Source: Lophium mytilinum
Lineage: Eukaryota
Length of the DNA stretch: 64,000 bases
Direction: 5' to 3'
Assembly: GCA_010093605.1 (NCBI GenBank)
Contig: MU004195.1
Location: forward strand, 124,001-188,000
Each line of letters begins with the position of its first letter. Within the stretch, counting starts at the first letter, position 1. Below the pieces are notes generated by a model, which was given only the letters and a program-made list of their open reading frames with translations, was not told the origin of the DNA and did no database searches. Shown in pieces: positions 4,482 to 53,570 of the stretch. A program made the position numbers and the translations under genes.

Positions 4482-4567
4482 TCCGGTGTGGTTTAGTTGG
4501 TTATAACACAGTCCTCCGGGCCGCGGCCCGAGAGGTCGAGACCCAAGTTCGATCCTTGGCGCCGGAC
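4482..4567 (+). tRNA. tRNA, most likely Arg(CCG), with a 13-nt intron (4520-4532) and a weak anticodon stem
   Basis: Acceptor TCCGGTG/CGCCGGA. A box TGGTTTAGTTGG. T arm CCAAG-TTCGATC-CTTGG. Anticodon loop CT-CCG-G. T6 terminator at 4584-4589. The anticodon stem CAGTC/GGTCG has one mismatch and two GU pairs. Confidence 0.75.
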
Positions 4568-16629: not shown

Positions 16630-17880
16630 GCTGGACGTGAAGTGAATCTGTTCGAGACTGAGCTTGATGATGGAGAGGGGGCGGCTGGAGATCGGTAGTC
16701 TGAGGTGGAGGGAGATGAGGCGATGGAAGAGGGGGTGATGAGCTTAGGCCGCAGCGGACTGACGACCTCACTTGATCTACACCGCTATAAGGACTACAGA
16801 GAGGATCGTGGGAATGAAAAGGTCCTAGATTGTTATGGTATATTGAAATATCTTCAATCACCCATCAGCAATATAGAAGACATGTGTCCGTTTGCGACAG
16901 TTTGGGGTCCTTCGATATGCTTTGGAAAATTCGAAAGATATATATCTCTACCATGCTAGACGATGCTTGAACCTGTTTTGCCACCCCAGACAGCGCCACC
17001 CTCATCGTTACCTTTCTGTAAGTTCTGGATATGTGTAGAAGATGTTGGATGCAAGTATGAAATACTAGTGGCTACGGGACTAGGGGGCCCATCAACTAGG
17101 ACAACGACCTGTGTTGAGGTGTTTACCGCCGTTTGAAGTACGTCAGAATATTTTGAAAGATCTAGTTGGAACGTGAACTCTTAGTTCTTTAGAGTCTGTA
17201 AACTCGCCAGGCCACCTCTGACTGCGTCAAGCGGCACTATTCACCACCCAAAAGAGTACTAATGTTCTCGTTTTACATATTCAAAACTGTACGAGATACT
17301 CCTTGAGGTGGTGATAGAACTTAGACATGCTTTTGTCATCCTGCCGTGCGAACGAGTCGTTCGAGGACTCAAACCTGGCCTTTCTAGTTGCGGCTGCACC
17401 GTTCGGCGAGGCTCAATAGGTTATCTAAGATATGAAGGATGAAAGAAAGGGCACAAACAGCTCGTCCAATCATATGAGACAATCTTTCAATGATGTTTTG
17501 TGCTATCAGTTAGCCGTTGTCGTTGTGTAGGTCTGAGAGGTCTAGGACGGGAGTCTTGCGCGCGCGCCAATACAGAGGCGGCACCAACTGTTTTCGATTC
17601 CATCAATACTTAATCAAAGCGAGGATCGGACATGATAATAGAGTCATAATACCATCAATCCGCGAGCTTAAACATCCCCTTTTGCACTGTCGTGGTGGGG
17701 CAACGTTGAAGTCCCGCTCGCGAAACATTCCCCGCATCCCCCACCCCCTCGAGAATTCAACATAATATCAAGAGTAACACGCAATACCCCAATAGTCTCC
17801 TGTATGCTTAATATACGTCTGAAGTCTAGGCTCTCTATCACAAAGTTACTAAAATAAGTGGGGTTGTGGTTGAAAAAGCC

Positions 17881-17938
17881 AAAAAAAAGAGCTCCCAGTC
17901 CTTCACTACCCCGGAATCGAACTCAGGACTACGAAAAA
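17881..17938 (-). terminator. Pol III-type T runs downstream of tRNA-Thr: T5 (17934-17938) and T8 (17881-17888)
   Basis: A5 and A8 runs on the plus strand. The T5 starts ~30 nt after the mature tRNA 3' end. Confidence 0.7.
17913..17924 (-). promoter_or_regulatory. Stand-alone B box (TFIIIC site) GAGTTCGATTCC downstream of the tRNA-Thr gene
   Basis: Matches the B-box consensus GTTCRANYC in the same orientation as the tRNA. Its flanks (CTGAG/CCGGG) do not form a T stem, so it is not a second tRNA. Confidence 0.7.
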
Positions 17939-17968
17939 GCGACGCTAGCATGCTAGCGCATCTATCAC

Positions 17969-18107
17969 TGCCCATTCTCGGAATCGCTAGAACCTGTAAG
18001 CGACTATGTCTGGAGCATAGCAGCGTTGTGGAAGTATACTTACAACCGAGGATCTTCTCATGTCGCATAGATACGAGTGAGACGCTGTACCACTAAGCCA
18101 AACGGGC
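17969..18107 (-). tRNA. tRNA-Thr(CGT) with two introns: 10-nt canonical intron (18062-18071) and 57-nt GT-AG intron in the T-loop (17987-18043)
   Basis: Spliced sequence GCCCGTT TG GCTTAGTGGTACAGC G TCTCA CT CGT AA TGAGA AGATC CTCGG TTCGATT CCGAG AATGGGC A. Acceptor 7/7 (one GU), anticodon stem 5/5, T stem 5/5, canonical T-loop. Confidence 0.9.
17987..18043 (-). other. Spliceosomal-type (U2) intron inserted between tRNA positions T55 and C56
   Basis: GTAAGT 5' splice site. GCTTAC branch-point-like motif (18001-17996) whose A lies 10 nt before the intron end. TTCTAG 3' site. Length 57 nt, matching the ~50-60 nt mRNA introns in this window. Confidence 0.8.
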
Positions 18108-19171
18108 CAGACGGTGATTTTGGGGCGGTGAGGAAATATGCCTTATATCTCGAGTGTTGGACAACCAGGTGTCATCAGTTGTAGAGAGGAGGGGTAGAAG
18201 AAACGTCATCTAGCTTCCCAGGTGACTGTGGGCTGTGGAACGCAAGCTGGTGGGTGGGTCGCCGCGGGCCGGTATGCGGCGGGGCGGCGATAGCGGTCAG
18301 CTCGCAAGCCACATAGCTGATTGGCCAGGTTGGTCACGAAGGTTCACAGGCATGATATAGAGAGAAACTTTTCTTGTATTAGACATACTGAGCTGGGAAT
18401 CATGAAAAGCGGTTGTGCTTTCCTGAACCGTATTGAGGGAACTACATTTGACCAGCATCTCTACGAGATTGTACCCTTCTGCTTCCTATGATTATTTCCA
18501 CTGTAGTCCGTCTGAGACTGTGTCTTACTTGCCCGATTGATAGCTTTTTTAGATATGAAACTGTTTGAGTCGTGACCAGCCCATTCAGCATGCGCTATCA
18601 TGCAGCATTCACGGCTTAACGTCTTAGAAAGCCAAAGCAAGGCACTTACGATGCGGATTCCAGAGTCTTCATTCTTCTATAGGCTCAGCACAAGAAAGGT
18701 TTACGCGAGAGTTGAGATATCAATGATATTCTTGATAAAGCATGCAGATCCTCATATGCCCTAGATGATTGGACAGGTTGACGGTCTATTTACATCTTCT
18801 CCATATGATAAAGCCGCTTCTGAACATGCTTTTGAATGCTTTCGGTCCTCACTGGGACGACGCTACAAGGGTAGGTAGAACTAGTCTTGCATGAGTAATG
18901 CGGAGCATATCGAACCGACATCTTACGCGATCTTCCGAGTCTCATCCCTTTCCTCTCCATCACTGCTCCGAGACCACGCTTCGTACACCCGGTTTTGCTC
19001 CTACATCTTCGTTGTTGGTTTCAAGCTGTGAATGATACCGTTTGCTGCTCGTCGGGATTTGCTGTTTCTAGAAGAAGCGATATCCTGGCGCAGCTCGCTC
19101 AGCTCCGAGAGTAGGATTTCTTTTTCTCTTTTCCTGCGACAAGACTGCGACATGGTGTGAAGGTTTTTGAG

Positions 19172-20980
19172 TTACTGCTGACACGTCCGACTCTTGTGTG
19201 ATGCACACCAGTGGCTGCATCCCGATCGCGATTGGAAGCAAGGGCATTTTGCGGGTTTGCAGTATGGAGCGCATTCGCATGATATCACAGACTTGAGGTC
19301 CGCCAGGATTTCTTGGAACTCTGCCTTGAACTCTTTTTCGTCCCGAGTGCCGGCGAATCGTTTAGCGTCCGAGTCAACCCATCTCTCAAGGGAATCCATC
19401 ACTCCTGCGAATTGGCGAGCTACCAACTCGTTGGACAGACCAGGGTGATTCGCAACGGTGTGAATGTTCCGAAGGATTGAAAGAATCTGCTGGTCATCCC
19501 AGAACATGCCCCCATCCATCAACGCGTCCTCGATCGTGATGGGCGCGTGGACGACCATGGTTCCCGGAGGCATGATCAAGGTGTCGCCGGGCTCTAGAAC
19601 AATCATCTCTAGTCGTCCCTTCTTTGGAAGATACAAACTCTCAAACTTCTTGTAATCTTCCATCTCTTGCTCCGTCAAATTCGTCATCACCGGCCAGGCT
19701 TTCAGTCCCGTCCACAGACGAGCCCAAGTGCCGTTCAGCCAGTCGATGTGGCAGCCCGATACAGCCCCACGTTGCGCATACAGGTTGAATGAGCGGCAAG
19801 AGTAAAAGTCGATGTATGGCTCGCCTGCAGCGTTCTTGATCGGGTCCGTGTGCGGCTTTCCGGCCACCGAGTCCGGGCCCGTTTTGCTCAACGCGCGATC
19901 AGAGAGCGAGGGAATCAATTGGAACCGCCTTCGTTCTAGGATGTCCGGAATCGGCTTCTCCACCACATCGCGTAGATTTAGTAGGTTGTATGGCAAAGAA
20001 TCGTTGCTAAGATGCTTCTTAGCCTTTTCCAGTCGCTGCAGGACCTCTGCTGTTGGAATCGCACGCGCGCTGGGCTGGTCCATGTGAATCGACGGATCTT
20101 GCACATCGATATTGGTGTTGCCGAATCGGTCTTCCATACGCTCCGAGAATTTCTGGCGAATAGATGACTCTAATTGGCTGCGCTGGGGGGCTTCTCGAAC
20201 GACGGTCGGCAGCGTGAGAGGTTTGCCGCTATCGACGTACGCCTCGAGATGATCCCAGGTCGTGTACATGACGTCGGCATCATCTAGAGATTGGACCGTA
20301 TTTGGGCCTAATTTGAGGTGTTCCGGAGCCCAGACGGCTGGCCAAGCGGAATTCTGCAACACATAGATGCCGATTTGCAGCATTTCGTGCCACTTTGATT
20401 GCTTCAAGTTCGGTGGGATAGAGTCTTTGCAAGCTAGCATCTCGCCCAACAGAGTTTCGAGAGCCGCCTCATGTTTGGCTTGGATACTGGCGATCCGCTG
20501 GCTGGCAGCGCGCTCTGTTGAATCAGCTGGATCGATGGCTGCGGGGGAAGAGACGGCGTGGATTGGAGCATTAGGCGGTGCTACCGTTACCGTATCCGGA
20601 ATTTCTGGCGCCTGGGATGATCGGGCAGAGACGTGGCTATGCAGCATGGTTCGGGAAGCCGTCTTTGGAATCTTGCTTGCTCGCCCGGTGCTCCCAAAGT
20701 CGGATGCTTCGATCTGGCGTTTGCGTTTTGGCATGGTTGGCGAAGTTGAGCGAGTCAGGGTCGCTTCGCAGCTAAGTCCCACGGTTCCACCTGCCTCGTC
20801 GCACAAACCATTTCGCTGCTGAATCCATGATTTTCGCGCCGCCAACTGGGTAGCTCTTTGTCGAGGGGTGAAGAACTGCGACTCCAACCGGTCTCCTTTA
20901 ATGGTAATGACGAAGGGCATTTTCTTTGTCTTGCCAGAGCAGACTGCGTCAACCTCCAAAGTCTCACAAAGTCGCCGCAA
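19172..20980 (-). CDS. JmjC-like Fe(II)/2-oxoglutarate cupin protein with a C-terminal Cys-rich (CXC-like) domain; true start uncertain (possibly ATG 20734, MPKRKRQ)
   Basis: 602-aa ORF. GAVSGCHIDW...GLKAW...LEPGDTLIMPPG..VVHAPIT gives the HxD...H triad. C-terminus CECAPYCKPAKCPCFQSRSGCSHWC. Confidence 0.75.
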   Translation of the reverse strand: MRRLCETLEVDAVCSGKTKKMPFVITIKGDRLESQFFTPRQRATQLAARKSWIQQRNGLCDEAGGTVGLSCEATLTRSTSPTMPKRKRQIEASDFGSTGRASKIPKTASRTMLHSHVSARSSQAPEIPDTVTVAPPNAPIHAVSSPAAIDPADSTERAASQRIASIQAKHEAALETLLGEMLACKDSIPPNLKQSKWHEMLQIGIYVLQNSAWPAVWAPEHLKLGPNTVQSLDDADVMYTTWDHLEAYVDSGKPLTLPTVVREAPQRSQLESSIRQKFSERMEDRFGNTNIDVQDPSIHMDQPSARAIPTAEVLQRLEKAKKHLSNDSLPYNLLNLRDVVEKPIPDILERRRFQLIPSLSDRALSKTGPDSVAGKPHTDPIKNAAGEPYIDFYSCRSFNLYAQRGAVSGCHIDWLNGTWARLWTGLKAWPVMTNLTEQEMEDYKKFESLYLPKKGRLEMIVLEPGDTLIMPPGTMVVHAPITIEDALMDGGMFWDDQQILSILRNIHTVANHPGLSNELVARQFAGVMDSLERWVDSDAKRFAGTRDEKEFKAEFQEILADLKSVISCECAPYCKPAKCPCFQSRSGCSHWCASHKSRTCQQ

Positions 20981-23650
20981 GGATGGCGCTTCGAACTGGT
21001 TCGTTCTCTGAAACGACTAGAATGAACAAGATGTAGTGTATAGTGTTATGCCCTAGCTGGAAAGTGGAGGTGTGTATAACAGGTGAGGATGAAGATGCAG
21101 GAAGAAACATTCGTTGGCGAAATTTTCTTTGTCCATTGAGCGAGATTTCACTGGTTTGTCCATGACAATAGAACAATATGATGGTGGCCCGGGCCTGAAT
21201 AGCTTGCGGTGCGGTGAAAGCTGGGCGGGTTGGCTATTGTGAGGTTGCTATTGTTCGCGCGCGCCCACAAGAACGTGCCAGAACACCACGCTCTTGGCCA
21301 TCGCGGCTGCATCTGGCATGTTCGTCGTGTATTTCCATCTTATACAATCTCCTTTTCACTGCGTGTGTTCTTGTCAGCATGTTGAAAAGGTTTGGTGAGC
21401 CAGGCCTTCCATCTGAACTTGGTTGAAGTGGTAAACAGCGAGGTCGCGCTGGCTGCCTGAGGCTGCGTGGTAGGTGAGAGACTTTGAAAACCCGTTTACT
21501 CCCTTGACTTGTTCAAGTCATGGCTTCTTTGTCGCACAGTTTCCACTGCTCTTTAAGTCTAGCACCATCTGTGGTGATCAAGCGAACAATAAAGGTTTGG
21601 CGTTTGCGTAGGATATTCTCAGTACGCAATCGCCTACGCAACGACAGTCTCAAACATCATTAGGTACGATCCATCAAGGAACCTAGCATGGAATCGTAAA
21701 TTTGTCTCGCGTCGGCTGGCGCAGGTCTCCAAGCTGGGCAATGGGTAGTCGGAGTTTGGCCTCATGAAAACGAAGATTGCGCCGCCTAGTCTGAGCATGC
21801 GGGAGAATACATGCCTTTTGGCTCAACAGTCTGAACCATATGGGCTCAGAAACTAAATGAGTAGTGAAGCGTGGCAAGGAGGGCGGTGAAATACAAGCAG
21901 AGCTGACAACCGGAGCCAGAGCATAGTCGACACGAGAGGAACAGAGCCTAGACCTGACACATCTGGACGCTCAACATCATGACTGTGGGGTGGGTGCAAG
22001 AGCTGGCCTAGGAGCCTGGGTATGAGCCAGCCACGAAGGGGCTGCGAGGACTCCCTAAACGGACAGTGTTACAAGGTGCTTGAGCACCGGTGAACGAAAG
22101 CTATCACTGACGAAACCGCGTTGGAAAGGAGCACACGGAGCAATACGAGCAAACACGCGACAAAACCCACAGGACAAGCATGTTGATATTTCGGGGGACG
22201 CCCGCAATTAGAGATACTGGGTGGTCCCATTTTGGTTCTCTGCGTTTTCGCTTGGCTTGTGGGCTGAGTGCCTCGTAATGTCCTTTGGCGTCTAAAAGTC
22301 GTTACAGTCTTGCAGGCAGCATCAAGATCTAGTGGTAAATGGTACAGTGAGCTAAGGGACCATACAAAGCTGGAGCCAGACGCGGACAAGGGCAGCCGTC
22401 GTGGAGGGCTGATCCGATTCGAAAGAGGCGAAAGGGCATGGTAAGCGGAAATTATAGCAGCATGTCGAGTTCGTCGTCCAAACGGCGACGCCAGCAGGGG
22501 CCGGATGCAAGTCCAGCCCAACCCGTCACACCGATTAGCGAGGTATTGTCGTGAAGTCGGAACGATGCATAACGTAGACTGCTATGCTTCTTATGTGGCA
22601 TTGAAGTTATCTAGATGCCTGGTTGAATATAGGCTAACAGCATCCTCAACTCTATCGCCACGAATAAGCTTGCCACCCTGCTTTACAAAGCTGCAGTGAC
22701 TCGCTGACTAGCAGACATGAGCCACTGTCATTTTCGAGCTGTTGGTGCATTTTCAGATTCCGGTGATGTGCAGAGATTAAGTAACCAGGCACGGTGGGGG
22801 CTGCGCGGCGCTTTGACGGCAAAAATAGGAGCTCGTGTAGGCCGGAGCGAAGCTTGTAGCAGGTCTTATACTTGGCACACATGCTTGGTCTACTTGTCAC
22901 CAAATGTCAGAGGATGATTCGACGCAGCGGTGTGCCCAGCGAAGTCATCCTCAGCCCAGCGACTCTTGGCTGTGTTTGGCAGTGCACGTTCACATTCTAC
23001 TTCGGGCATAGCTTAGACGTGAGCCTCACCCTTCAACTCACCACCATGCTCCACATTCGCCAACGGGCAGCACCCAGCCCCCAATCACTACATTGCGAGC
23101 ACGTTCACTTGCTGTATCCGTTGCTCAGCGCTCGTTCCGTGTGGCCAACTCCGCGAAGCGCAACTGACAATAGGGATCTGGGTTCGCTGAGTCTACGCGC
23201 CTACAGCACTCTAAATACCGCCCCAGCATATCTGCTCTATATTTGCCCAGAAGAGCTACCCAGCAACACGCCACAGCCGTTAGAATAGACCCTTTCATAT
23301 CCAGTCCAGTCTCCAGGACGTATTCCCGCCCCCGAACGTGCACTGACTCGGCGTCTATGAGTGTAAATCTCCACTGTGCCAGGGCTCAAGCCAGCACACC
23401 GCGGGTTGCAGCTCTGGGTATCATGCCGTTGCACGGCTTGCCGAGCCGGTGCAGTAGGCATCGCGGCTGGGATGTATGCCTTGACTGAGCCCTCAGCCGC
23501 AGCTACATTGGTATATATCTGTATCAGAGACCCCCCATCTCCTTGACTCACCTCACTCGGCGTATTTCTTCTGCTATTGTATGCTGGCTCTTATTCTTCT
23601 AATTCCTTTCGTGCTTTCTCTATCTTTTCTTAGGAGCTCAAATAGCCATC

Positions 23651-47110: not shown

Positions 47111-50100
47111 TCACCCTCCGAAGTTCATCTTCAATGCGATGGTGGGCTCGCCACTCTCGTCCCTCCTCTGCGCATCCCTCCCTCTCGCCTGGGCGCCCGC
47201 ACTGCCAGCCTTGATCACGCTTTCCATGAAGCTTCTCTGCTCAGCACTCATGCCGCCCACAACTCCCTTAAACGCAGTCTGATCAGCTCCTGCAAGCTCG
47301 AGTAGCCGGGCAGCAGTCTCTCTGTATGTCTCAGCGCCCTCCTTGCTCGCGCGTGCTAGTAGTGTAGGGACCACAAGCGCCATGGCCGTCTGCTTCTGCT
47401 GCGTCTTCGCGAGGCCAGGCACGAAAGAGGTCAATGAGTGCGCGACGATAGTACGGCTCTCATCCAATCCTTCGACGTCAGATGGATTAGCTAGGAAGGA
47501 CACAAGAATCGGGAGGAGGTGAGACGCCATCGCCGATTCCGCAGCACCCTTGCTGGGAAGTAAGAGGAGGGTACGACTGCAATTTGCGGCCACTTTGCTA
47601 GTCATGCGGTTTTCTAAGCACTCGCCGATCTCATCGATGAATCGCTTCAGGAGCGGATCACTACCCTCTAGCGCCGGCGCTGCGGAGCTAAGCAGGATAG
47701 TCGTAGCGAGAATAGTGTTCTTCTCGCACGGCAGCGCCGCCTCCGATTCTCGCTTCTGTGCCTGTTTGAGGATGGCTAAGAAACGAGTGAGGACGCCACG
47801 GAGCTGCACGGTAGTCTCGGGGGCTGACGAGCGAGCGAGGCTCGTAACAAAGCGCCTGAATATGGGAAGTGACTGGGGTATCACAGTCTCCTGGCACGAT
47901 CCAGTGCCCAGTATTGTCGTGAATATGTGAAGGATGCAGGCATGAAGGTCGGTTTTGATAACAGAAGGGAACACGGCTGCGGCGTCTACGAGAGCTGATA
48001 GAGACAACCGTAGCAGAGCCAAGGCTTCTTCAGATAGATCGGGGCGAGCTGGGAATATTGCATCAGCACAGAAAACAATGAAGGTTGTAAATCTCGCACC
48101 TTGTGACTTTTTCTCGGCCAAGTTAGGTACCAAGCCTTCGAGCACAAGGACCATGATTTTAGTCAACTCAAACAGCTGATCGATGTCTTCCGATAACTTC
48201 TCTTCGCCGACAGGCCCACTAATTGATAATTAGCTTATAAGTCATCCAATCTGCATGGAAACATACTCATGCCCTTTCCTCGCCGATGGATGGCCTAGGC
48301 ACAGGTTCCTCGCGATTTCCACGATCACAGACTGTACGCTTAGTCCCTCGGTCAGTGCCAATCGATCAAGCATATCCATAGTTTCCGAGAAGACGACTTC
48401 TTGGTAGATGGCATGGCCCGAGACAGCCGGTCGAAGTATCTTCTTCAATGCCCGTAGTATTCCCAAGATCTGCTCCTTTGTTGCTTGCATGTCTCCCGGT
48501 CTGCCCACAAGCGCTTCAAAAGCAAGGCCGAAAAGAACGAAGAAGAAAGCCACGGGCTCGTCTCGATAGTTGATATCACTAGGTTTTCCATTTGCGCTGG
48601 GTGTTGAGGGCTCTGTTTTCCCATCGAGCGCATCGAAGACAAATTCACTGTCCTCATCAATGAGGCTTGCGATCGCATCAACGAGATTGAGCCAGGAATC
48701 TTGGTAGAACTACAAAGATGTTAGGGATTTCCAAGATAGTCATGATGGAAGTTTACCTTTAGCAGTGTCTCTCGATTCAAGGCGGCGTATATCGTGTCCA
48801 AGCTTCCTGAGAGCGAGCCGGGTCCCGACGACGAGATATCAGGCTCAAAGCGTAGCCGTGCATACTCCCGCAGTGATGAGAGCCAAAGTGGGGTCAACTT
48901 TGCGATATGTGGTTTCAAGACATCGACAAGATATTTCTGCTCTGCGCTGGCAATCTGAAGCTCTGCCCACGCCGAGAATACGGCCATCTTGACCATGACC
49001 TGGGCATTGGAGCTGAGGCCTTTCAGGTCACCGATGGAAGCAATCTCAGATTCGCCTGAAGACCAAGTTAGCCAAAGCAACGCGGGATTCATCATAGAAG
49101 ACCTTACTAGAGAAGTTTTCAAGGGCTGAGACGAGAAGCTTGAGGATACGGCCCATTCGGTCGACATCTGTGACGATCCCAGTAGCGATAAATGTTGCAC
49201 AAACATTGACAGCTTCTGCCGCTAGCTCAGGAGAGGAGTCTGCAGCAAAAGCCGGAGTGAGGGCTGAGCCAATCTGGGCTTGATATTGCTCAAGGAGTGA
49301 AGCTTCAGCAAAATCAGGGTCAGGAGTTTTGCCGAAAATCTAGTCATAACAATTAGTACAATCTCTAAGTAGTCATATAAAGAGCTTCACTTGCCTTTAG
49401 AACTTGATCGATAATCTTCAAGCCCCTAATTCGTAGCTGCACGACACCAGCGGTAGACGCAGAGAAAGCGATACGCACCACATCCGCAATTCTCTGCTGT
49501 AACGCAAGTGCAGCTGGAGAATGTTCTTGCGACGCCGCCTCCCCACTGATCATGGAGAGAAGGTCGCTAAGACAGTCCATCGCAAATGTCCGCACTTGCC
49601 ATTTCAGCAACTCTTGACTAAACTGCGCTGCAGAGCTTGGGTCTTCCCCAGCTGTTGTGGCGGATGTAGCAAATCCGGCCACCTCCTCATCTTGTAGATC
49701 TGGAACCGCTGGCTTTTTAGTCTGTGGAGCGGCGACCTGCTCCGGCCGACGCATTGTCTTAGTAAGAACGGTATGGCATCTTTGTACCCACTCCGCCGTG
49801 TTTGACAGCCCCGTTTGATGAAGCCAGTTTCTAATTATGTTCCGCACGACTTCATGCTCTGGAACACTGTTGAAAATCAACCAAAGCTGATCTTCTAAGC
49901 CGGGCTCTGCAGTTCGTATGACCTCTTCTGCATTACGTCTCATGAGGTTGTGAAGTCCATCAATAGCCATATCCCTGATCTGAACTGAGTTGCTATCGAG
50001 ATCCTTTTGAAGGTGTTTGACGTATGCGGCAAACTCCATGTGGCCCGGAGCATAGAGTGAGAGATGTTCTTGGCATCGGAGGCATTCAATAAGAACCAGT

Positions 50101-53100
50101 CGCTCTTCTTCACGCTGGAACCTATCGATGAGTATCATGATCAAGTCTCGCGCCTTTGTCATGTCTTGAAGGTCTGGTCCGAGAACATTGATGATACTAT
50201 CAATACAGCGAGCAATGACTGCTGGAGAGGGAAGGTCGATTTCGAGATTGGAAGACGCCAATGACGCGCATTCGTCGTTGTGAGTATCGGCAACGTACAA
50301 CTGCGCAAGCATGCCGAGGGTACCGGAAACATAGCCAGAGAAAGTCAACCCAGCAGAGTCTGCCACTCTCGACAAGCTCTCTAGAGCCCAAAAGTGGACT
50401 GTTGGGTGGGGATCATTGCTGAGGGACATTAATATTCCCAATATATTCTTCAAATGATAGCCAGCTGCCATGCCACCTAGTTGGGAGTGTATGCATCCCA
50501 AAGCAAGCGCACATCCTGATCTTGCATTGGGCTCCCTATTTGAAACAATCTGATCGACAAGGTAGTTGACTTCCGCTGTAGTGAAGGCATTCCCTGAGCT
50601 GCTACAAAGACGTCCGAGTGCTTCGCTGGCTACGTTTCGAACGTACGGATCAGGATGTATGATGAAGACCTGGTATCCATCGTTAGACAATCTCTTGACA
50701 TGGAAATGATCAGAACTTACATGCAATAGCTCTTGCATGACCTTTTCAACTGCGCCACCCCTTAGATCACCTGAAGCGGACCGAGTTTCTTTCACGGCAA
50801 CCTTCAACGTAGCTAGTAAGGCCATAGCAATATTGACCATCATTGCCGACCTTCGTCCAGGATCTCTTTGTAGATTGTTGGCGGAGAGAAATGACGACAT
50901 TTGCTCAAGTATGCTCTCTTGGACCTTGGGAGTCTGAAGGGGCAGACATATCGCGAAAAGATTGATCGCAGCGTTGATTACCTCTGTAGAAGGCGGATCA
51001 GGAAGATTGTTGAGATCATCCGAATTGTTGATGTACAGGGTGAGGGAGTCATGCTCTCGAGCTCCGCAGATAGGTGACAGGAGCTAAAAGTATAAGCATG
51101 AGATTCGCTAAAAGCCTTTGGATAGGAAACGTACTGTTCGATCTACCGTGGCTTCTGGCCCACTTCTGGTCACCCAATGATGCTGCGTACTGAGATCTTG
51201 TTCTCCAGGTAGAGGTTTTATGTCGAATGCACGGAGCAGTCCAGTGACTCCGAAGCCGCAATTGTCGCCGACATCCCATATGCTCTCGAACGTACCGGCA
51301 GAGCTGGCAATCGAAGTGCTGAGAGAGCTGGGTGCGTAATTATCAGGGTCCGCGAAACTTGAAAGTGCAAACGGAAGCAGGTTGGTCTGTAAAAGCATCT
51401 CGCTGCTTCCAGGTGGGCTTAGATTGACAAGCTTAGAGTAACATTGGAGTACCCTTCTCCGAACCATGAGATCAAAATCGTGGAGTTGGAGAGCTGGTGA
51501 CAGTCTTTGCGAGATGTCGTCCGTGGTCTTCTTCGTTGGCAGGGTGTTCAAAAACATGGTGGTGTTTTGAAGCATGGCAGCCAAACGCTTAGTGACGTCC
51601 AAAGTTAACAACCTGCTGTTGAACTCTAAAAAGTTCAGAATAGACCCCAGTGCGCATTCCCGTACATGCGCAAGGAAGCTTAATTCCAAAACGTTCCGTT
51701 GAACCATATTATCCCTGTTCAATGGCTTTGGCAGAGCATTCTTCCAGAGTAGCAGTAGTTGAGATAGATGAATCTTGACAAAATTTGGCCCAAGAGTCAT
51801 TAGGCCTCCGATTAAAATCCACGCGACTTGAATTTGCGTAGAGGAGATTCGCAAGTCGGAGCTGCTACTGGACTTTAGCAATGTAGTCGCTTGAGAGAGC
51901 ACCCGGGAGTTGACATCAACGGATCCATATAACGGCTGTAAATTTGAAGTACTCAAGACAGCAGAGAGCCCGTTGGCAAGCCCAACGCATCTTCTCGGAG
52001 ATTGGCGAGGCCCAGCAAGCAGGCTCAGCTCCCGATTAACGCTATTCATGCATATGGTGACAGAGGGTAGCAGTTGCTGGGGACAAGCCAGAACAAAAGA
52101 GCGTAGACAAGAAGCGGCATACACTTGAACAGTGTAGCTGGGGTGCTGGAGAACTTGCAGCAGTCCTTCTCGGCAAGTATCCGCTACCGCATTGGTTGCT
52201 GATCCTAGACTATTCATCAGAGAAGAAAGCGCACTCAGTGCGCCAGTCAAAGCTTGCTTCGACGGTTCCGGCCTTTCCTTCAACGCTTGAGGGTAGTCTT
52301 TGAGAATCTCGTTGACGAGGTACTTGGATGCGTTGAGTTGGCCAGATTCCCCAAGCATTTCTCGGCCAATGACTTGTTCTAAAATAATTCGAACATATTT
52401 CCGCGTCGTAAGTAGTCGGTATCGGTTTTGCACGATGCTCGAATAGCTGAGCAAGTCGTTCAGAAGGTGCCGAGCAATGTCTCCGTATTTGTTTTCAACG
52501 ATCTTTTCGCCGAGGCCGCGTAAAGTCTTCATATAACAGATAGCAATTCCAGCTCGGCCGCGGTTGCTAGTGGCGGGACGACAGTAATGACTCGACAGTT
52601 GCTTGAACAGTTCTGGAATCGCAAATGCCAAACGCGTTGCCGGTTTCTGGGGTGCCGGCGATCCGGGCCTCTCAATGACATCGTCGTCTCCTTCGATCTG
52701 AGATTGCTTCTTCGTTGGTTTCCTCTTCGTCTTGCTTCTCGAAAGAGTTTCTTTGGAGGCATTCTCGGAGTAGCTTTTCACCAAGGCAGTGCTAAGACAT
52801 GAAGCACCGGCATGCCTCACTGTGCTGGAACCAGTGTCGAGAACCTTCCATATGACACTTTGGAGTTTCTCAAAGTCGTTAGAGTTGTCGAAATAATCTG
52901 TCTCGCGGACGAGCTGTTCTAAACACCAGCAAGCGCTCGCCTGGACAAGTAGTGACTTGTCTCCTGAGGCAGCCGATCTTGCTTGCTTCCATACGTCTCT
53001 GGCTACAGACTCATCAGCAGATCCACCAATCCCTTTGAATACCCTGCCCAGAGCCTTGAATATGGTAGCCCGAAACCCGGCATGGTTTTGGGAAATCTTG

Positions 53101-53570
53101 AGGAGACGCATCAAGGACATTGACACAAGGCCGGAGAGGCCCACGGCGCTATCCCCAGCAGCTTCATATACATATCCAAGACTGTGGGCCGCGGCGTGCT
53201 TGGCCTTGATATCCTTCTCACTCCTGCCCGTAGCATTCAGAATTGCCACTAGCTCGTTGATAGACTCAAAGAGTAGTTTGCGATCCCCCTTTCCGAATAT
53301 TCCAGCAAATGTCCTGCCAAGATTGTTGCGAATGATACGTGTAGGCGCAGGCGAGGGCAGGCTGATGATCTGGAAAAGCTGCTTCTTGACATATATTTGG
53401 TGGGCGGAGGCGCCGTCTGCATCGAGCGAGGAGACATGCCGAGCAAGATCGGACGTGAACGTAAGAAGGTAGAGGTCCTGCTGCTCAGAGGGGAGAGCGT
53501 GCAGCTTGGGGATGTCGAGCTCCGGGTTGGAGACGTCCCCATTCGCAGGACTTCGCTCGTTTGTGGCCAT
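47111..53570 (-). CDS. LAA1: HEAT-repeat AP-1 accessory protein Laa1/HEATR5, multi-exon
   Basis: About 2000 aa of HEAT-like sequence over consecutive ORFs with GT-AG introns. HSQLGGMAAGYHL, DPDFAEASLLEQYQAQI and C-terminal PTIALKMNFGG. Confidence 0.92.

Follow-up and report, generated by a model that had tools for sequence, protein, structure and literature searches.

The 64-kb stretch of dothideomycete DNA analysed here (the window) probably contains a nuclear tRNA-Thr(CGU) gene with two introns of different kinds: one at position 37/38, a substrate for the tRNA splicing endonuclease, and a U2-type spliceosomal intron at position 55/56, in the T-loop. The gene would belong with other fungal tRNA-Thr(CGU) genes to a wider class whose members, judged by their sequences, have between one and three such introns each, distributed over at least eight sites. 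The initial annotation of the window knew of no described case of this kind. A literature search, which covered mainly openly accessible articles, likewise returned no description of this class or of spliceosomal introns in tRNA genes in general.

A tRNA gene with two introns of different kinds

The tRNA-Thr(CGT) gene lies on the minus strand at 18107..17969 and consists of three exons and two introns, all read from that strand. Exon 1 (18072..18107), as delimited by the ARAGORN cloverleaf after excision and by spliced alignment, comprises the acceptor 5' strand, the D arm and the anticodon arm as far as position 37, and includes an intact A box, TGGCTTAGTGG (18090-18100). It is followed by a canonical tRNA intron of 10 nt at site 37/38 (18062..18071, TCTATGCGAC), on which the tRNA splicing endonuclease is expected to act. 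Exon 2 (18044..18061) runs from position 38 to T55 and contributes the anticodon stem 3' strand, the variable loop, the T stem 5' strand and the first two T-loop bases. The spliceosomal-type intron of 57 nt (17987..18043) then interrupts the T-loop at site 55/56, and exon 3 (17969..17986) supplies C56 to A73, that is the remaining T-loop, the T stem 3' strand, the acceptor 3' strand and the discriminator A. This is the minus-strand layout that had been proposed in the initial annotation, and the sequence bears it out.

The same annotation had suggested running a tRNA finder on the locus with and without 17987-18043. ARAGORN called no tRNA in the uncut locus at three settings, nor did Rfam, either at gathering score or with E<=10. 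Once the 57-nt insert was removed, ARAGORN at its default threshold called a tRNA-Thr(cgt) of 72 nt plus a 10-nt intron, with an acceptor stem of 7 bp (one G.U) and anticodon and T stems of 5 bp each, in agreement with the proposed identity and with the presence of a normal 37/38 intron. Minimum free energy folding of the uncut 139 nt gave no cloverleaf (-43.3 kcal/mol, z = -1.99) and no clue to a mechanism. The excision point of the insert is unique, and no shifted cut yields the same product. As a control for chance, in-silico excision was repeated for 5391 GT..AG candidates, 35-120 nt in length, from the two strands of the window. A single excision, that of 18043..17987, produced a tRNA across the junction; no other GT..AG-interrupted tRNA of the window was found among the 5391 constructs.

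The joined exons are identical at 72 of 72 positions (alignment score 137) to the mature sequence of at least 12 uninterrupted tRNA-Thr(CGT) genes from metagenomes, and neither the cloverleaf nor the alignment revealed any sign of decay in the stems or exons. The view that a cut at GT/AG restores the T-loop and paired stems of an undecayed gene was thus confirmed. No second copy of the gene or of the 57-nt insert was found within the window. One protein of the window shows 100% identity to a protein listed by NCBI under Lophium mytilinum. In a protein search, an adjoining ORF of 614 aa gave distant matches only. Of the sequencing runs, X1 and X2 are near-identical and may stem from the organism that supplied this DNA. 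Contigs of X3, a close relative whose kind is guessed, cover 17577-17908 and 18393-19200, show no joint and leave 17909-18392 uncovered, which says nothing on the presence, expression or splicing of the gene.

The insert begins with GTAAGT (18043-18038), which fits the fungal consensus GTRNGT, and ends with TAG (17989-17987), a YAG 3' splice site. The branch-like motif CTTAC (18000-17996) places A17997 10 nt from the 3' end; it matches YTNAY, not the stricter CTRAY. As reference we used six mRNA introns from the LAA1-like gene of the window that are verified by an exact match of the peptide to P0012. Their lengths are 47-52 nt, the branch A lies 9-14 nt before the 3' end, and all end in YAG. 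Five of the six begin with GTA, one of these with GTAAGT, and one of the six has CTTAT or CTCAT as sole branch candidates. The 57-nt insert fits the window's own mRNA introns in its splice signals, so that the elements picked out in the initial annotation (GTAAGT, GCTTAC, TAG and the branch A17997) are like those of genuine introns of this genome; in length it slightly exceeds both these introns and the nine metagenome inserts described below (47-52 nt). By its signals it is classed as a U2-type (GT-AG) spliceosomal-type intron, and removal would be by the spliceosome. A self-splicing group I or group II intron was rejected, as Rfam returned nothing for the insert at gathering score or with E<=10; with 57 nt it is also too short for either type.

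Related genes in metagenome contigs

Metagenome contigs were scanned with a 17-mer of the gene as probe, which gave at least 117 matches, at least 31 of them tRNA-Thr(CGT) loci. The initial annotation had predicted that a class of such genes could be hidden in fungal genomes. Among the matches listed, seven of the 31 tRNA-Thr(CGT) loci carry such inserts, nine in all and 47-52 nt long, a share that is not an unbiased frequency. Window and metagenome loci together show eight different insertion sites. All ten extra inserts (47-57 nt, the window's included) can be excised as GT..YAG; nine start with GTNNGT, and each has a YTNAY with its A 10-12 nt from the end, at exactly 10 nt in eight cases. 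CTRAY is found as branch motif in eight of the nine metagenome inserts, from which the CTTAC of the window departs. The cut position is unique in seven of the ten. In-silico excision led to tRNA-Thr(cgt) in all intron-bearing loci except L095, which is truncated.

An intron at 37/38, 10-31 nt long, is present in all 31 tRNA-Thr(CGT) loci among the matches listed, and GT..AG ends occur in none of the 29 canonical introns that were aligned. The expectation that standard finders overlook genes with extra introns holds for the window locus, missed by ARAGORN and Rfam, and equally for the seven metagenome loci, of which ARAGORN missed five and mislabelled two. Beyond the Thr genes no interrupted tRNA was detected in the flanks of the loci, in a screen that also gave false positives at the 3' ends of intact genes, and the 400-nt flanks of the metagenome loci contain no convincing coding ORF.

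Two pairs of loci are informative about the history of the introns. L039 and L081 have identical exons (72/72) and have both kept two extra introns. Their flanks show 42-48% identity and are unalignable; the intron at 7/8 is 87% identical, the canonical intron 67%, and the intron at 29/30 65%, with CTGAC changed to CTAAT as its branch motif. Both loci have C-G at acceptor pair 6-67, as opposed to T-A in the window gene, a compensatory change which is present in intact genes too. Conserved exons and splice signals next to diverged intron interiors point to retention under selection. Since dead copies would not match this pattern, genes of such a build can apparently be functional. L005 and L095 represent the same locus, as the downstream flank is 85% and the canonical intron 90% identical. 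A D-loop intron is common to both, and a T-loop intron at 57/58 is present in L095 and absent from L005, which argues for intron turnover between close relatives. As further loci carry such inserts, either retained (L039/L081) or present and absent (L005/L095), the sequences indicate that a class of tRNA-Thr(CGT) genes with spliceosomal-type introns exists at the DNA level.

The comparison of orthologous loci envisaged in the initial annotation turned out in its favour within the gene family: conserved exons and signals with diverged interiors were found in the L039/L081 pair, but no orthologue of the window's exact locus was recovered among the metagenome loci. For this reason, the insert of the window could be very recent.

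Promoter and terminator elements

A TATA-like element, ATATAAGG, is located on the minus strand at 18141..18148 (-41 to -34 relative to the tRNA 5' end) and may serve as a promoter element. Such motifs occur at -70 to -20 in 16 of the 27 loci with enough upstream sequence, and they are equally common upstream of genes with and without extra introns. Downstream, a T5 run on the minus strand (17934..17938), 31 nt past the tRNA 3' end, is the likely Pol III terminator. A run of at least four T beginning at most 31 nt from the 3' end is found in 28 of 29 loci, including all eight with extra introns. The 31-nt trailer of the window gene is unusually long, though not unique; it contains a 16-nt palindrome (17943..17958, detected as a self-match), a potential hairpin just before the T run. 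A similar hairpin with T5 is present in the trailer of locus L054.

The B box of the gene itself is split by the 57-nt insert into GGTT and CGATTCC. In ordinary tRNA genes the B box is the main contact of TFIIIC, and transcription of the window gene may thus be impaired. However, a B-box consensus, AGTTCGATTCC, lies on the minus strand at 17913..17923, beyond both the gene (by 46 nt) and the T5 run (by 11 nt). Over the whole 64-kb window and both strands, it is the single match to RGTTCGANTCC, where 0.27 would be expected. The stem flanking it pairs at three of five positions, and the element could represent a B block that has been displaced or else what is left of a T arm. Reading of the sequence further revealed a T8 run on the minus strand (17881..17888), a possible second terminator, which follows the B-box-like element. 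Among the matches listed, a second B-box element is absent from all 28 aligned metagenome loci. In L095 the B box is also split, with no replacement in the 230 nt of sequence at hand, and in L005 the A box is interrupted by an extra intron. The intron at 7/8 of L039 and L081 contains a conserved T5, at which Pol III should at least partly terminate. Eight of the ten extra introns have no run longer than three T, which is too weak as evidence of T-run avoidance.

Proposed maturation and its alternatives

We infer from these features that the gene is transcribed and its precursor spliced, as well as which polymerase is at work and how the steps follow one another. The gene would be transcribed, probably by Pol III, in view of the TATA-like element upstream, the intact A box, the T5 31 nt downstream and the possible replacement B block behind the terminator. 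The 57-nt intron would then be spliced out by the spliceosome, in the form of a lariat with its branch at A17997. Only a precursor freed of this intron could fold its T arm and elbow, and RNase P, RNase Z, the endonuclease with its ligase, and CCA addition would thereafter complete the tRNA.

A broader reading, on which we are evenly divided, is that spliceosomal introns have repeatedly colonised tRNA genes of filamentous ascomycetes and been selectively kept, that decoding of ACG has become dependent on the spliceosome, and that the split B box has been replaced by a downstream B block similar to that of SNR6. Of the tRNA-Thr(CGU) genes sampled, about a quarter (7 of 31 among the matches listed) would hold between one and three of these introns, at no fewer than eight sites from the acceptor stem to the T-loop.

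The insert could, on the other hand, have disabled the gene. A spliceosomal intron would have been copied into it, by reverse splicing and reverse transcription or by another route of gain, and the gene would be silent or give no usable tRNA, either due to the split B box or because Pol III transcripts are not spliced; ACG would be read by an intact tRNA-Thr(CGT) elsewhere or by wobble of tRNA-Thr(UGU). We consider this unlikely, but well worth weighing. The interrupted B box and the unusual, though not unique, trailer are in line with it, the insert is not dated by any orthologue, the perfect exons are what a recent event would leave behind, and T-loop inserts come and go between the close relatives L005 and L095. 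Against it speak L039 and L081, which keep their inserts between perfectly conserved exons in strongly diverged flanks, the position of the sole B-box match of 64 kb directly behind the gene, and the lack of decay in any stem. Seven of 31 loci (among the matches listed) would also be a high share for dead genes which all keep perfect cloverleaves.

A second alternative accepts the anatomy and the spliceosomal removal but assumes a Pol II precursor, with the TATA-like element as Pol II promoter and release of the tRNA by RNase P and RNase Z. Transcription by Pol II would account for recruitment of the spliceosome, and spliceosomal introns are described as typical of Pol II transcripts (PMC12530127). 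The internal promoter boxes are broken in several of the genes (the B box in the window gene and L095, the A box in L005), and the T5 conserved in intron 7/8 of L039 and L081 has the same length as the terminator behind many of these genes. All eight intron-bearing loci, however, have a T run at most 31 nt from the 3' end, as do the intron-less genes, which have TATA-like motifs upstream just as frequently. The B-box element downstream of the window gene points to TFIIIC, and the U6 RNA of S. pombe is a precedent for spliceosomal splicing of a Pol III transcript, as reported in PMC5855946. On balance a Pol II precursor appears improbable to us, and we prefer the Pol III transcript outlined above.

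Dothideomycetes are known for introner-like elements. Fungal genomes also contain tRNA-derived repeats, according to PMC8450103. Nevertheless, it is very improbable that the locus is a SINE, that is a tRNA-derived repeat, or an introner-type mobile intron copy instead of a gene. Evidence against such an origin comes from the single copy of gene and insert in the 64-kb window, from the intron interiors, which are mutually unrelated across loci save for orthologous pairs (median identity 0.50 versus 0.49 for shuffles), and from the perfect cloverleaf.

Hardly credible, finally, is a non-canonical intron with a bulge-helix-bulge (BHB) motif, like those in the tRNAs of archaea, red algae or nucleomorphs, which the tRNA splicing endonuclease (SEN) would cut: although non-canonical introns in D and T arms are reported for Cyanidioschyzon merolae and nucleomorphs (PMC4090602), removal of the 57-nt insert by this route was rejected because no BHB motif is present, the 4-bp central helix between two 3-nt bulges with the cleavage sites being found under strict geometry and in both orientations in none of the ten inserts (2/4 and 1/4 in that of the window), while all ten have GT, branch and YAG signals, for which a BHB intron has no reason, and their lengths match the mRNA introns of the same genome.

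Comparison with known introns

The canonical eukaryotic intron at 37/38 is shared by the window gene (18071-18062) and all 31 homologues among the matches listed. The 57-nt insert differs from it in its site, 55/56 instead of 37/38, and in its sequence grammar. Site 55/56 lies outside the reach of the ruler mechanism of the tRNA endonuclease. According to PMC4090602, non-canonical introns occur in the tRNAs of archaea, Cyanidioschyzon merolae and the nucleomorphs of cryptophytes and chlorarachniophytes. As described there, these resemble the fungal inserts in affecting the D arm, anticodon stem and T arm, in numbering up to three per gene, and in being missed by standard finders. They are, however, defined by a BHB or 3-24 nt long and cut by the endonuclease, in contrast to the fungal inserts with no BHB in ten and spliceosomal signals in all.

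The closest parallel is found in small nuclear RNA genes. The U6 RNA of Schizosaccharomyces pombe is a Pol III transcript with an intron that is spliced by the spliceosome and contains the B block, and in SNR6 of S. cerevisiae the B block follows the coding region (PMC5855946). The same source mentions similar introns in the U1, U2 and U5 genes of Rhodotorula hasegawae (citing Tani and Ohshima, 1989, 1991; Frendewey, 1990; Takahashi, 1993, 1996). As far as these systems are described there, the window gene is like S. pombe U6 in having a GT-AG intron within a small structured non-coding RNA gene, and like U6 and SNR6 in having promoter elements rearranged around it; the possible B block just behind its terminator recalls the arrangement in yeast SNR6. 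Unlike these hosts, a tRNA is not a component of the spliceosome, and reverse splicing into an active-site snRNA, the usual explanation for snRNA introns, is therefore not directly applicable. The tRNA differs further in needing the protein-only tRNA splicing pathway as well, and in that many independent insertion sites occur in one gene family.

Spliceosomal introns have reportedly also been found by Bhattacharya and colleagues in nuclear rRNA genes of lichen-forming ascomycetes. These would likewise be spliceosomal-type introns in genes of Pezizomycotina outside Pol II transcription; there, however, the host is an rRNA transcribed by Pol I, and no second splicing system is involved.

Implications

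Non-canonical introns are sought by tRNAscan-SE in archaea only, as stated in PMC8450103. As ARAGORN missed or mislabelled the seven metagenome loci, 'missing' fungal isoacceptors may be annotation gaps, and if the broader reading above is true, annotated fungal tRNA sets would be systematically incomplete. As a gene of 72 nt offers eight sites of insertion here, and close relatives supply a pair with and without an intron, the family may also provide a clean system in which to study intron gain.

In textbooks and recent reviews (PMC12530127 and PMC4090602), tRNA splicing and spliceosomal splicing figure as distinct systems, each with substrates of its own. If the proposed explanation holds, the window gene would join U6 of fission yeast as a second natural case in which the spliceosome acts on what is probably a Pol III transcript. 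Some tRNAs may then require the mRNA splicing machinery for their maturation, with the spliceosome acting before the tRNA endonuclease, and the translation capacity for one codon would be tied to spliceosome activity.

The tRNA-Thr(CGT) gene carries two introns

The interrupted tRNA-Thr(CGT) gene described in the initial annotation is confirmed. The sequence proposed for the minus strand at 18107-17969 agrees exactly with the window DNA. On this strand, the gene consists of exon 1 (36 nt), a canonical intron of 10 nt after position 37, exon 2 (18 nt, up to and including T-loop bases 1 and 2), the 57 nt insert (18043-17987, site 55/56) and exon 3 (18 nt). The proposal that a GT/AG cut of the insert restores the tRNA was borne out by ARAGORN, which then reports a tRNA-Thr(cgt) of 72 nt plus the 10 nt intron, with four intact arms and an acceptor stem that contains one G.U pair. 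The uncut locus gave no tRNA with ARAGORN, whether or not anticodon-loop introns were allowed and also at a lowered threshold, nor with its bacterial mode, nor in Rfam at gathering scores or at E ≤ 10. The excision point is unique, a shift by one base in either direction leading to a different product. As a chance control, all GT..AG candidates of 35–120 nt in the window, on either strand, were excised in silico. Only one of 5391 constructs, that lacking this insert, yielded a tRNA across the junction. The exons are identical (72/72) to those of twelve intact genes among the metagenome matches listed.

The window contains just one further confident tRNA gene, an ordinary tRNA-Arg(CCG) gene (4482-4567, plus strand) with a 13 nt canonical intron. 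In its bacterial, no-intron mode, ARAGORN reads this span as tRNA-Gly(TCC). The interrupted gene adjoins a 614-residue ORF (19172-21016, minus strand), which is cupin/JmjC-like according to the annotations of its matches and poorly conserved (best relatives about 35% identical).

The insert resembles mRNA introns of the same genome

The insert begins with GTAAGT and ends with TAG, and the A of a branch-like CTTAC (position 17997) lies 10 nt before its final base. For reference, P0012, a LAA1-like protein which NCBI names from Lophium mytilinum, was mapped onto the window, with which it agrees at 100% identity across the 824-residue query ORF. A GT..AG excision was kept only if the spliced 20-residue peptide was exact. 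The six introns confirmed in this way are 47–52 nt long, start with GTAAGT, GTACGT, GTATGT or similar, end with YAG and have the branch motif A 9–14 nt from the end; in one of the six, CTTAT and CTCAT are the only branch candidates. Compared with these, the insert is slightly longer and the third base of its branch motif is non-consensus. As signals and length resemble those of the six introns, the insert fits the organism's own mRNA introns. The LAA1/HEATR5-like gene (47114-53570, minus strand) contains at least six short introns of 47–52 nt.

The insert has no bulge-helix-bulge (BHB) geometry in either orientation and no Rfam match (gathering scores; E ≤ 10), and the 64-kb window contains no second copy of it.

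Related tRNA genes contain further introns

Metagenome contigs were scanned for an exact 17-mer from exon 2, and at least 117 loci matched, most of them chance matches in unrelated DNA. Among the matches listed are 31 tRNA-Thr(CGT) genes, 28 identified by spliced alignment to the in silico mature sequence and three (L012, L055, L096) by ARAGORN. All 31 have a canonical intron of 10–31 nt, which is the only intron in 24 of these listed loci, while the remaining seven carry nine further inserts in total. In standard tRNA numbering, these stand at sites 5/6 (L058), 7/8 and 29/30 (both L039 and L081), 13/14 (L005), 25/26 (L010), 30/31 (L038) and 57/58 (L095, which also has the cut-off end of a 13/14 insert). 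Including 55/56 in the window, this makes eight sites among the matches listed.

The ten inserts are 47–57 nt long. GT..YAG excision is possible for all of them and is the sole possible cut for seven. Nine start with GTNNGT, the exception being L095 (GTACAT), and all have YTNAY with the A 10–12 nt from the end (exactly 10 in eight cases). None of the ten has a BHB motif, and GT..AG ends occur in none of 29 canonical introns. Once the inserts are removed, ARAGORN calls tRNA-Thr(cgt) at every insert-bearing locus but L095, the 5′ end of which is off the contig. Outside two orthologous pairs, the interiors of the inserts are unrelated; thus the inserts are not one mobile family.

The initial annotation had suggested that tRNA finders would miss such genes and that a class of them could be hidden. 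Both suggestions hold for the listed loci, as seven of 31 have inserts and ARAGORN, when given the uncut sequence, misses five of the seven and assigns a wrong identity to two. The fraction of seven in 31 rests on an exact 17-mer match, samples tRNA-Thr(CGT) as the sole tRNA and includes some closely related loci (L005/L095, L039/L081, L037/L080 and L089/L112/L114).

Retention and turnover of the extra introns

L039 and L081 have identical exons (72/72), whereas identity is 87% in the 7/8 intron, 65% in the 29/30 intron (branch motif CTGAC in one, CTAAT in the other), 67% in the canonical intron and 42–48% in the 200 nt flanks, which are essentially unalignable. Conserved exons and splice signals with free interiors, the pattern which the initial annotation had named as a sign of function, are thus found in this pair, and such a pattern would not be what a dead gene keeps. 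Both genes differ from the window gene by a compensatory exchange in acceptor pair 6-67 (C-G for T-A), common to several intact genes.

L005 and L095 represent one locus in two close relatives (downstream flank 85%, canonical intron 90%, D-loop intron shared). A 51 nt GT..AG intron in the T-loop is present in L095 and absent from L005. Gain or loss of such introns thus takes place over short evolutionary times, and the window is not alone in having a site in the T-loop. L095 would hold three introns in one tRNA gene.

The window insert might alternatively be a recent knock-out in a gene copy which has not yet decayed. Its exons are indeed undecayed, and among the metagenome loci listed there is no orthologue of the gene's flanks; retention as in L039 and L081 points the other way. 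We consider a knock-out unlikely, while giving it some weight.

Promoter elements and polymerase

In the window gene, the A box is intact and the B box is split by the insert (GGTT/CGATTCC). The other elements of a Pol III-type context occur as well. A TATA-like element, ATATAAGG, is found at −41 to −34. A T5 run follows 31 nt past the 3′ end; just before it, a 16 nt palindrome (17943-17958) in the 3′ trailer could fold into a hairpin. The intact gene L054 has the same hairpin-plus-T5 trailer of about 26 nt. In X3, a sequencing run of a close relative, two extra A (T on the gene strand) in a T8 run downstream of the locus, at 17880, are the sole difference reported in the parts covered, 17577-17908 and 18393-19200, which lie on either side of the tRNA gene.

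Just past T5, 46 nt behind the gene and on the same strand, lies AGTTCGATTCC (17923-17913, minus strand), the sole match to RGTTCGANTCC in the 64 kb, both strands considered (0.27 expected for the whole window). The 28 metagenome loci that were aligned contain no second element of this type. AGTTCGATTCC could be what is left of a T arm, given that only three of the five positions in its flanking stem pair. A functional B block, which would give an A-to-B distance of about 175 bp, is just as possible. If it works, the gene would resemble Saccharomyces cerevisiae SNR6 in having a TATA element and a B block behind the terminator, as described in the accessible text of PMC5855946. The same text places the B block of Schizosaccharomyces pombe U6 inside the spliceosomal intron of this Pol III transcript.

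In L095 the B box is split with no replacement in the available sequence, and L039 and L081 have a conserved T5 inside their 7/8 introns, as long as the putative Pol III terminators that follow many such genes. These two observations point the other way. Pol III is tentatively favoured, since a T run is retained within 31 nt of the 3′ end at each of the eight intron-bearing loci, just as it is in the intron-less genes.

Maturation and relation to known introns

Anatomy, splice signals, match to the genome's introns, homologous cases and retention are shown, and a pathway may be proposed. The precursor would be transcribed, and the spliceosome would excise the insert as a lariat branched at A17997. 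Before this step, the T arm and the D/T elbow could not fold; in established tRNA processing, these parts are read by RNase P, RNase Z and the tRNA endonuclease. The 10 nt intron would then be cut and the exons ligated. The predicted fold of the uncut RNA is not a cloverleaf, which agrees with a spliceosome-first order and does not prove it.

In its presumed mode of removal the insert is like the spliceosomal introns of snRNA genes (S. pombe U6; Rhodotorula U1, U2 and U5; accessible text of PMC5855946). In type of location it is like the non-canonical tRNA introns of archaea, Cyanidioschyzon merolae and nucleomorphs (accessible text of PMC4090602), but it lacks the BHB motif which defines these. 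tRNAscan-SE 2.0 offers a non-canonical intron search for archaea only, according to the accessible part of PMC8450103. PMC12530127 draws a line between the intron types, with spliceosomal introns placed in mRNAs and other Pol II transcripts. The string ‘spliceosom’ is absent from PMC4090602 and from PMC13578239, and none of these articles mentions spliceosomal introns in tRNA genes, as far as their accessible text goes. We found no description of such introns in the full-text literature, a body that mostly excludes subscription journals and supplements, and an earlier report is possible. The interpretation given in the initial annotation is supported at the level of DNA and comparison. What appears to be new is that a spliceosomal-type intron, known from non-coding RNA genes, would now be found in a tRNA beside the canonical tRNA intron.
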